Origin: an uncultured Candidatus Rokubacteria bacterium
GTDB taxonomy: Bacteria > Methylomirabilota > Methylomirabilia > Rokubacteriales > DASRDR01
Direction: 5' to 3'
NCBI GenBank assembly: GCA_963826115.1
Contig: CAWGVS010000005.1
Span: forward strand, 1,984,001 to 2,048,000
Length of the DNA stretch: 64,000 bases
In this document: positions 49,436 through 51,697 of the stretch, piece by piece
Layout: each line of letters opens with the position of its first letter
Position numbering within the stretch: the stretch's first letter is position 1
Made by a program: the position numbers and the translations under genes
The notes under the pieces: generated by a model
Database searches by the model: none
Told to the model about the DNA's origin: nothing
What the model saw: only the letters and a program-made list of their open reading frames with translations

Positions 49436-50089
49436 TCAAGCCGGCCGTGCGGGTCGCGGCGCGAGCGCGGCCTCGGGAGCGGCCCGCCGGGCGCGGGCCC
49501 GGGCGCGGCGCACCGCGTCGACGATCCGGACGGCGAAGAGGAGCGCCAGCCACGCCGCGTAGTAGTACGGCCCGCGCACGCCGACCTTCGCGAGCCAGAA
49601 GTAGTGGAGCACGCCCAGAATCCCGATCAGGTAGACGAGGCGGTGGAGGCGCCGCCACGCGACCCCGCCGAGCCGCCGGATCATGCCCGCGGTCGAGGTC
49701 GCCGCCAGCGGGAGGAGCAGAACGAGTGCCGTGAAGCCAACCGTGACGTACGGGCGCTTCACGATATCGGCCGCCATCTCCGGCCAGTCGAAGAAGTGGT
49801 CGACGACGAGCCACACGCTGAAATGCAGGAGCGCGTAGAGAAAGGCGAAGAGTCCGAGCAGGCGCCGCAACGTCACGGGCCACGACAGACCGAACAGGAT
49901 GCGGAGGGGCGTCATGGTGAGGGAGAGCAGCAGGATCCTCAGGGTCCAGTCGCCCAGCGTGTCCGTCGCCACGTCGATCGGATTCGTGACGAGCGGATCG
50001 GTGAAGAGCCGCCAGAGAAGGCTCGCCAGCGGGGTGAGGCACCCCGCCCACACGACGGACTTCAACCCGATCCGTTGCGGGCGGGTCAC
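49436..50089 (-). CDS. msrQ: Heme-binding membrane subunit MsrQ
   Basis: TPLR, RRLLGL..YALLH, LAATS and WRRLHRLVY..HYFW. Confidence 0.93.
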   Translation of the reverse strand: MTRPQRIGLKSVVWAGCLTPLASLLWRLFTDPLVTNPIDVATDTLGDWTLRILLLSLTMTPLRILFGLSWPVTLRRLLGLFAFLYALLHFSVWLVVDHFFDWPEMAADIVKRPYVTVGFTALVLLLPLAATSTAGMIRRLGGVAWRRLHRLVYLIGILGVLHYFWLAKVGVRGPYYYAAWLALLFAVRIVDAVRRARARARRAAPEAALAPRPARPA

Positions 50090-50111
50090 GTTTGCGGGGG
50101 CTCCGACGCGG

Positions 50112-50702
50112 CTACGCCCGCCCCTGGTCGGGGCAGTCGCGGCGGTCCGGGTCCGGTCGCGAGTGCCGCCAGAGACCCTGCGACGGCACCCGAAGCGCCC
50201 GGTTGAACTTGCTGGACGCGTTCTCCCACGCGATCACCGCCGTCAGCTCCACGAGGGCGTCGTCGTCGTAGAAGCGGCGAAGCCGGTCGAAGAGCTCGTC
50301 GCCGACCTCGCGATCGCTGAACGTCATCGCGTCGGCGTACTCGAGCGCCGCGCGCTCCGCGCCGTCGTAGAATAGGCTCGTCGCGTAGCCCGGCAGCGCC
50401 AGGATCTTCTCCTCCGGCACCCCGAGCGCGCTGCCCACGGCAGCATTGATGTCCTGTCAGAACCCGCAGCCGTTCAGAAACGCCACGCGCCGGTTGGCGA
50501 GGGCCTTGAGCCTCTCGTCGATCAACCCGGAGGCGCCGATGCCCGCCCACATCCCGCGTGCGCCCCGAAAGATCGAGGGCCGGCGCGCGTACACGAGGTG
50601 ATTCAGGAGAGGAGCGCCCCAGTGCTTTGCCTGCGCGGCCAGCACCTTCTCGGCGTAGTCGTCTCCCGCCTCGCCTGGCCGGACACCCTCGACGCGGGCC
50701 AC
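50112..50702 (-). CDS. AhpD/carboxymuconolactone decarboxylase family protein, probable selenoprotein (UGA at 50457-50459)
   Basis: ORFs 50457..51377 and 50112..50438 are in the same frame and join as RLKALANRRVAFLNGCGF-U-QDINAAVG..ERAALEYADAMT..LVELT..WEN..FNRAL. A SECIS-like stem-loop follows the UGA. Confidence 0.85.
50430..50444 (-). promoter_or_regulatory. Bacterial SECIS-like hairpin
   Basis: GCTGCC-GTG-GGCAGC; the apical loop begins with G, 18 nt after the UGA. Confidence 0.65.
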
Positions 50703-50722
50703 CGCCTCTGCCCTCCCCGCGC

Positions 50723-51697
50723 CTAGTACTGCTTCTTCAGATCCATCCCGGCGTAGAGGGACGCGACCTGGTCGTAGCCGTTGAACATGAGGGTCTTCCG
50801 GCGGCGGAACTCGCCGATCCGCCGCTCGGTCGCCTGGCTCCAGCGGGGGTGGTCCACGTTCGGATTCACGTTCGAGTAGAAGCCGTACTCGGCCGCCGCC
50901 GCCTTGTTCCAGCTGGTCTTCGGCTCGTCGGCGACGAGCCGGATTCGGACGAGGGACTTGGCGCTCTTGAACCCGTACTTCCAGGGCACCACCACGCGGA
51001 CGGGGGCGCCGTTCTGGTTGGGAAGCACGTGTCCGTACATCCCCACCGTGAGGAGCGCCAGGGGGTGGTTCGCCTCGTCGAGGCGGAGCCCCTCCACATA
51101 CGGCCAGTCGAGCGACGAGCCGAAGAAGCTCGGCTTCGTGCCCGGCATCTGCTCGGGGTCGACCAGGGTCTGGAACTCCACGTACTTGGCGGCGCCGGTC
51201 GGCTCGACCCGCTTGAGAAGGGCCGAGAGAGGGTAGCCGATCCACGGGATGACCATCGACCAGCCCTCGACGCAGCGGAGCGCGTAGACGCGCTCCTCGA
51301 GCGGCGCCAGCTTCAGGATCTCGTCGATGTCGAAGGTCTTGGGCTTCTGACAGAGGCCTCCGACGTCCACCGTCCACGGCCGGGGGCGGAGCGTGTGGGC
51401 GTTCAGCGCCGGGTCGGACTTGTCGGTCCCGAACTCGTAGAAGTTGTTGTACGTCGTGACGCTGTCCCAGGGCGTGGGCGGGTCGGTCACGCTCACCGCC
51501 TGGTTTCGGGTCGCGGCCAGAGGCTGGCCCTTCACCGCCGGCTTGAGCGCGGCTTCCGCCGGAGCGTTCGAGCCTCCGACCGTGGCCGCGGCGGCCGCGG
51601 CCACGCCGGCCATGAAGGCCCGGCGGTTCAGGTACACCCCTCGCGGCGTGATCTCCGACGGGCGCGGATCGTGTGGTCCTGGAACGCGGATCAGCAT
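50723..51697 (-). CDS. msrP: Periplasmic Mo-dependent methionine sulfoxide reductase MsrP
   Basis: Tat signal [34 protein letters not shown] and [12 protein letters not shown]. Confidence 0.96.

Follow-up and report, generated by a model that had tools for sequence, protein, structure and literature searches.

In one genus of Rokubacteria, a gene for a selenoprotein of the AhpD/CMD fold, here called X, lies between msrP and msrQ. We propose that it encodes a cytoplasmic oxidant scavenger, co-transcribed with its neighbors, that would work in parallel with MsrPQ without being an electron partner of MsrQ, and we give this reading a probability of about 0.5. The incorporation of selenocysteine (Sec) at codon 82 of X, by SelB acting on a downstream hairpin, is close to certain. 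MsrPQ, this class of protein and the way in which it is recoded were all known before, and only the position of X between msrP and msrQ in one genus is new; among the literature matches listed (titles and abstract openings), none reports a gene of the AhpD type, or one with Sec, within msrPQ. The window, a stretch of 64,000 nucleotides from one genome of the genus, contains the following features.

49084..49347, minus strand: 87-aa open reading frame (ORF) after msrQ, conserved in the genus and present at most genus loci, not in G149; no NCBIfam or Pfam match
49436..50089, minus strand: msrQ, heme membrane subunit (NF003831, 155.5 against a cut-off of 130)
50112..50702, minus strand: X, AhpD/CMD-fold selenoprotein gene, 196 aa, C79-x-x-U82, member of NF053654
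50430..50444, minus strand: bacterial SECIS hairpin, 6-bp stem, GUG loop 18 nt after the UGA, -8.9 kcal/mol
50457..50459, minus strand: in-frame TGA, putative Sec codon (codon 82, C-G-F-U)
50712..50716, minus strand: GGAGG, putative ribosome-binding sequence 9 nt before the GTG start of X
50723..51697, minus strand: msrP, molybdoenzyme subunit with a Tat-like signal (NF003767, 474.7 against 207)
51711..52898, minus strand: caiB-like gene for a family III CoA-transferase (PF02515), 13 nt before msrP
53027..54931 (start approximate), minus strand: yitJ-type gene for a bifunctional homocysteine S-methyltransferase/MTHFR (NF006396, 680 against 453)

The frame of X (50702-50112, minus strand) comprises 196 codons followed by TAG and contains a single in-frame TGA; it starts 20 nt after the msrP stop and ends 22 nt before the msrQ start. 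Gene callers split X in two, and the Sec reading is a correct but ordinary fix. Read through the TGA, X scores 318.9 on the NCBIfam model NF053654 (GroundWater_YciW, 'YciW-related (seleno)protein'; cut-off 310), with a match spanning model positions 1-178 of 179, and a six-frame search with the stop left in gives 311.1 on this model. The Pfam CMD domain matches residues 44-124 of the read-through product, across the TGA. X reaches only 16 bits on TIGR01926 (cut-off 81.8), and a profile search found no match to TIGR00778 (ahpD_dom). An AF2 model with Cys in place of Sec predicts a single all-helical domain (pLDDT 95.9), in which helix 80-92 runs over the UGA site and C79 and U82 lie between helices 63-76 and 80-92. 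The CxxU motif is thereby modeled within the two-helix motif of an all-helical fold, as in the canonical AhpD peroxidases, M. tuberculosis AhpD and PA0269. The Pfam match and the model bear out the observation, made in the first-pass annotation of this DNA, that AhpD/CMD-like sequence continues on both sides of the TGA. That annotation had also placed X in the cytoplasm for want of a signal peptide, and X indeed has no signal-like or membrane-like hydrophobic stretch (best 19-residue mean, 0.97). Neither a flavin nor an NAD(P)H domain was found in X by NCBIfam and Pfam searches.

Across 12 copies from the genus, dN/dS was 0.19 for the N-terminal half of X and 0.17 for the C-terminal half, compared to 0.105 for MsrP and 0.196 for MsrQ; purifying selection on both halves indicates that X is an intact gene. 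Relaxed selection on the window's copy, which has 8 private substitutions and a long branch, was considered and rejected, as its dN/dS against the copy in G164 is 0.14, like that of MsrQ. X is of the same sequence class as NF053654, from which it differs by its place inside msrPQ and by Gly at codon 80 (window 50463-50465). Glu is the residue here in 79 of 80 metagenomic relatives and in each of the 11 other copies compared from the genus. The Gly is either a true variant or a one-base assembly error. A second copy of X on contig C11 (239 kb) was rejected as a duplication. Since 73% of C11 aligns to the rest of the assembly, nearly all of it to C5, at ~80% identity, this contig is probably DNA of a congener that was binned in; assembly contamination is 5.3%.

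The genome holds the Sec machinery whose absence the first-pass annotation had named as fatal to its reading: selA, selB, selC (tRNA-Sec) and selD all score above their cut-offs. The window's contig carries selD, which also contains a TGA; the other three are on contig C8. All 15 genomes of the genus have selA. The codon at the Sec column is TGA in every one of 80 metagenomic relatives (the best 80 of 461), and Cys takes its place in 3 of the 30 database proteins that match the motif (P0006, P0013, P0040), in two Actinomycetota genomes (L117, L119) and in the PDB entries 2GMY and 2O4D. This is the interchange of UGA and Cys that had been looked for among homologues. The remaining 27 of the 30 database proteins have W at this column, which is probably a product of recoding by gene callers. 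X therefore has the features by which bacterial selenoproteins are recognized, namely selA, selB, selC and selD in the genome, a consensus SECIS element, and a UGA aligned with the Cys of homologues. The databases also hold the C-terminal half of X as a 108-aa protein, which, like the many full-length versions with W, would fit a TGA that is a true stop, a sequencing error or a Trp codon (implying a pseudogene, a gene split in two or a different genetic code), but this is very improbable: the TGA recurs in all 80 independent contigs, purifying selection acts on the two halves alike, the putative GTG restart reads GTC in 7 of 38 genes, the SECIS codons are constrained, and TGA ends 29 of the 48 window genes (by codon-score calling) and so is not read as Trp. 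Sec recoding of the TGA, as first proposed, is thus supported by the conserved TGA, the Sec machinery, codon constraint and purifying selection.

The consensus for bacterial SECIS elements, as given in the available text of PMC13188914, is a loop of 3-9 nt, a stem of 4-16 bp, a G in the first two loop positions, a spacing of 16-37 nt and an MFE of -7.5 or below. The hairpin of X falls within every one of these ranges (loop 3, stem 6, G first, 18 nt, -8.9 kcal/mol), in agreement with its initial assignment to the bacterial SECIS model. The distance of 18 nt then assigned to the hairpin is correct for the loop, whereas the stem begins 12 nt past the UGA. The stability of the hairpin does not exceed that of shuffled sequences (z of -0.45, 0.12 and 0.56 in contexts of 40-60 nt, and likewise for 40-80 nt), the low z of a hand-trimmed 15-mer is circular, and such a hairpin is not unusual in GC-rich DNA of this kind. 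What sets it above chance is conservation, seen in codon constraint and pairing, and not stability. The Ala codon at +5 is GCT in 37 of 38 relatives (distinct, close and selected for a single TGA), although GCT is rare in the remainder of these genes (37 of 915 Ala codons). All six pairs are kept in 63 of 69 genes drawn from all subfamilies, and the loop is led by G in 68 of them. Changes on both sides of the outer three pairs are seen between subfamilies, in few events that alter the protein as well.

Selenoproteins of this kind have been described. The tables of PMC9312934 and PMC13188914 include families of AhpD-like and CMD-like selenoproteins with CxxU, and NF053654 is a curated family; the first-pass annotation likewise named AhpD-like selenoproteins as known. 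X shares its fold, motif and Sec position with both the 'AhpD-like protein' (COG2128 YciW / TIGR01926, CxxU) and the 'CMD-like protein' (PF02627, CxxU). Methylomirabilota are reported to be rich in selenoproteins (PMC13188914), and the words MsrP and Rokubacteria are absent from the available text of that paper. The best PDB sequence matches of X are the debrominase Bmp8 (6OHI, the top match) and the AhpD-like proteins PA0269 (2O4D) and Atu0492 (2GMY), with E values of 5e-12 to 5e-10. All three have a CxxC in register with the motif of X, in which the second Cys is replaced by Sec.

MsrP and MsrQ score above their family cut-offs and are encoded together, with X between them; on TIGR01409, MsrP scores 16.3, slightly below the cut-off of 16.7. 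The spacing suggests that X is co-transcribed with msrP and msrQ. The caiB-like gene is probably on the same transcript as msrP, and the operon is likely longer than three genes, with aroK-like, yitJ and caiB genes upstream. A promoter scan of 48900-56200 found no promoter-like sites, and terminator-like matches on the minus strand occur only in a repeat between yitJ and caiB (3 in all, compared to 1.9 expected). This gap (window 52900-53026) holds a short repeated element with hairpins and two terminator-like matches, near the chance level. caiB adjoins msrP in all 15 genomes of the genus and in G045, and a yitJ-type gene lies upstream of msrP in the four other genera of the family that were read for yitJ. 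In the window (53027-55563) and at seven other loci (L090-L094, L106, L107), aroK-like and yitJ-type genes are followed by msrP, with or without caiB. One run of genes in this family joins methionine synthesis with methionine-sulfoxide repair. In one genome (G175, locus L038), the msrP match is split over two overlapping frames, as a result of a frameshift or an assembly error.

Thirteen of the 15 genomes of the genus have X, always directly after msrP, and msrQ follows in 12 of these; in the other carrier (G202) the contig ends within X. Of the two genomes that lack X, G169 is the deepest branch in the genus (support 91/79) and G201, with msrPQ intact, is nested among carriers (89/89, not strong). 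In G201 the msrP-msrQ gap is 73 nt, of which 30 nt match the start of X at 93% identity; this is either a deletion scar or an assembly collapse. Of the 14 genomes descended from the insertion, 13 have kept X. Outside the genus, the order msrP-X-msrQ was seen in none of 50 msrPQ loci, which include five other genera of the same family and were taken as top matches or long contigs with both msrP and msrQ in view, from ~150 genomes with msrP. All 50 gaps between msrP and msrQ are at most 357 nt and are therefore too short for X. Among the metagenomic relatives (the best 80 of 461), msrP and/or msrQ lie beside the gene at 11 of 80 loci and neither does at the other 69, of which 52 have at least 500 nt upstream and at least 300 nt downstream. 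The 11 metagenomic copies and the 13 copies from the genus form an exclusive clade of 24 (FastTree support 0.98; 0.86 for the genus copies alone). As all 24 msrPQ-linked copies belong to this one clade, the gene order arose once. These sequence comparisons suggest that X is normally free-standing and was inserted a single time between msrP and msrQ, in an ancestor of most of the genus. The order first noted in the window is thus real and tightly spaced, but it is confined to one genus clade. The proposal of a dedicated three-gene Mo/heme/Se system did not hold: there is one origin, in one genus, with one loss, and the partners are separate elsewhere among the genomes examined. The signs of an obligate three-component MsrP-X-MsrQ system, recurrence in independent lineages and mutual absence, were not found. 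Moreover, caiB, whose function has no evident link to MsrPQ, is as faithful a neighbor of msrP as X is, so synteny at the level of the genus is by itself no proof of function.

The most serious alternative to the scavenger proposal is that X is a real selenoenzyme with an unrelated job of its own, which entered an insertion-tolerant junction and has been kept there by ordinary genus-level synteny. We consider this a substantial possibility, at somewhat under even odds. Relatives of X outside the clade have no fixed partner, as 101 flanking genes, taken from 69 loci, yield 48 clusters with no more than 8 members each. The junction between msrP and msrQ also holds other inserts, including a 100-aa ORF in G108 and non-coding stretches of ~240-300 nt in G091, G182, G065 and G175. 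In addition, G201 lost X with msrPQ left intact, and the aroK-like, yitJ and caiB genes upstream make for a mixed operon. On the other hand, X has been retained by nearly all descendants of the insertion, and a second, independent lineage of AhpD-fold selenoproteins is tied to msrPQ in sister genera.

Members of this second subfamily have UGA at the Sec column of X and lack the first Cys, with the motif Y-x-x-x-Y-U. They form a separate clade with 40% identity to X over 126 aa. The subfamily is present in 49 of 201 genomes of the phylum and has no NCBIfam model over cut-off (NF053654, 120.8 against 310); it is possibly undescribed and more novel than X. Members, and small Met/Lys-rich ORFs observed near msrPQ, are found at the following positions.

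L062:951-1493 (G038), L077, L151-L153, L268-L270 and G000:C6:877051-877578: genes of the no-Cys subfamily
L062:757-933, L077:75-248, L151:8475-8615, L152:8046-8222, L130 and L131: small Met/Lys-rich ORFs, 15-25% Met, with signal- or lipoprotein-like starts

When coordinates were compared with 141 of 161 msrP rows, the no-Cys gene was at most 4 kb upstream of msrP in at least 5 of the 49 carriers (G038, G071, G155, G021 and G093). These five loci also hold a small Met-rich exported ORF and an exported Sec-containing TlpA, and four of them, where the contig reaches far enough, a two-component pair. In 4 more genomes, where msrP is either on a different contig or was not detected, the no-Cys gene directly precedes the genes for Sec-containing TlpA and a sensor kinase. 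None of these neighbors is present at 20 of 30 inspected no-Cys loci. In the window's genome, the TlpA gene and two-component pair are at 915-918 kb of C5, ~1.1 Mb away, and the no-Cys gene is on C6. The TlpA-like gene has no in-frame TGA in four genomes of the genus (L278, L279, L281, L285) and one in 11 other genomes of the family, which suggests a recent interchange of Sec and Cys. A paralogue from the CPFU subfamily (G000:C5:2055564-2055866, L030) has a frame that diverges from the family exactly at the Sec codon and looks truncated or frameshifted. The simplest history is an old msrPQ cluster with an AhpD-fold selenoprotein, its break-up within the family, and the later capture of X. The link of the upstream no-Cys subfamily to msrPQ may be one ancestral event. 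With only two events in all, the case for a purpose is suggestive and no more.

Known systems offer parallels to X. MsrPQ repairs damage by HOCl (PMC12525009, available text). In Azospira, the yedY1-yedZ1-mrpX operon adds an accessory gene for defense against reactive chlorine to msrPQ, according to the available part of PMC4436054. MrpX, which the Met/Lys-rich ORFs described above resemble in composition, is a periplasmic substrate of MsrP, whereas X is cytoplasmic, contains Sec and is encoded between P and Q. RclX of Pseudomonas aeruginosa, a member of the AhpD family, is induced by HOCl and protects against it (PMC7950407, in the part available); RclX is a single-gene operon, while X shares a run of genes with msrPQ. 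We propose that X has been retained because oxidative or chlorine stress, which creates the demand for methionine repair in the periplasm, would also make a scavenger in the cytoplasm useful. The independent AhpD-fold selenoprotein lineage tied to the msrPQ module in sister genera counts in favor of such a purpose, and the distance of ~1.1 Mb to the TlpA and two-component genes in the window's genome counts against stress induction of the operon.

To judge from its sequence and fold, X may work like an AhpD-fold thiol oxidoreductase. Sec82 would be the likely nucleophile towards an oxidant or electrophile, such as peroxide, HOCl/chloramine or a sulfenylated partner, Cys79 would resolve it to a selenenylsulfide, and a cytoplasmic reductant would recycle this bond, with X staying outside the chain of electrons from MsrQ to MsrP. 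The top PDB match being a debrominase, a halogen electrophile is a possible substrate. The Glu, Tyr/His, His relay of AhpD, which in PA0269 consists of Glu36, Tyr50 and His55 (PMC3141380, available text), is replaced in X by A67, F81 and N86, so that the canonical proton relay is missing. N86 is conserved in 90% or more of 41 rows. Without this relay, peroxidase activity of X cannot be assumed. A selenol, with its low pKa, might do without the relay, but the Cys relatives carry the same Asn.

Alternatively, X could be a third subunit, bound to MsrQ on its cytoplasmic side and passing electrons to the FMN of MsrQ or, as a sink that borrows reducing power, accepting them from it. The short gaps on either side of X would suit such a role, and MsrQ, which has no dehydrogenase domain of its own, needs an outside cytosolic donor; in E. 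coli the flavin reductase Fre can feed it (available text of PMC12525009). However, X has no domain like that of Fre and no flavin or NAD(P)H domain at all, MsrPQ occurs without X in all 50 outside loci and in G169 and G201, and X occurs without MsrPQ at 69 of 80 loci (the best 80 of 461). R75, R76, H89, H149 and H162 of MsrQ are invariant in 16 rows, and the Arg-Arg pair R75/R76, which appears to correspond to R77/R78 of E. coli, is the same in carriers and non-carriers of X. We therefore regard a third subunit as unlikely, and the redox link between X and MsrQ suggested in the first-pass annotation is not upheld. Still less likely is a selenium gate, in which scarce Sec-tRNA would turn the UGA into a stop, leaving ~370 nt untranslated before msrQ and lowering msrQ by Rho-dependent polarity: the UGA does lie upstream of msrQ in the same putative transcript and rho is present, but there is no evident benefit in cutting MsrQ and not MsrP, and long inserts lie before or after X in some carriers.

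A broader form of the scavenger proposal, and as a whole a doubtful one, is that Rokubacteriales have a selenium-based defense in two compartments, directed against reactive chlorine and the oxidation of methionine. Its ancestral form would have combined msrPQ, a Met-rich peptide, an exported Sec-containing TlpA and the cytoplasmic no-Cys selenoprotein; after the break-up of this cluster, X would have been recruited as the needed cytoplasmic arm, possibly drawing electrons at the FMN of MsrQ. If true, this would provide the first function for the NF053654 family. NF053654 has no stable neighbors, and msrPQ is the one place seen that ties this family to a pathway. The context of X, together with the msrPQ link of the no-Cys subfamily, leads to a concrete guess for its role, the scavenging of reactive chlorine or peroxide in the cytoplasm. 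If X does exchange electrons with MsrQ, that exchange would also be relevant to the debated source of electrons for MsrQ.
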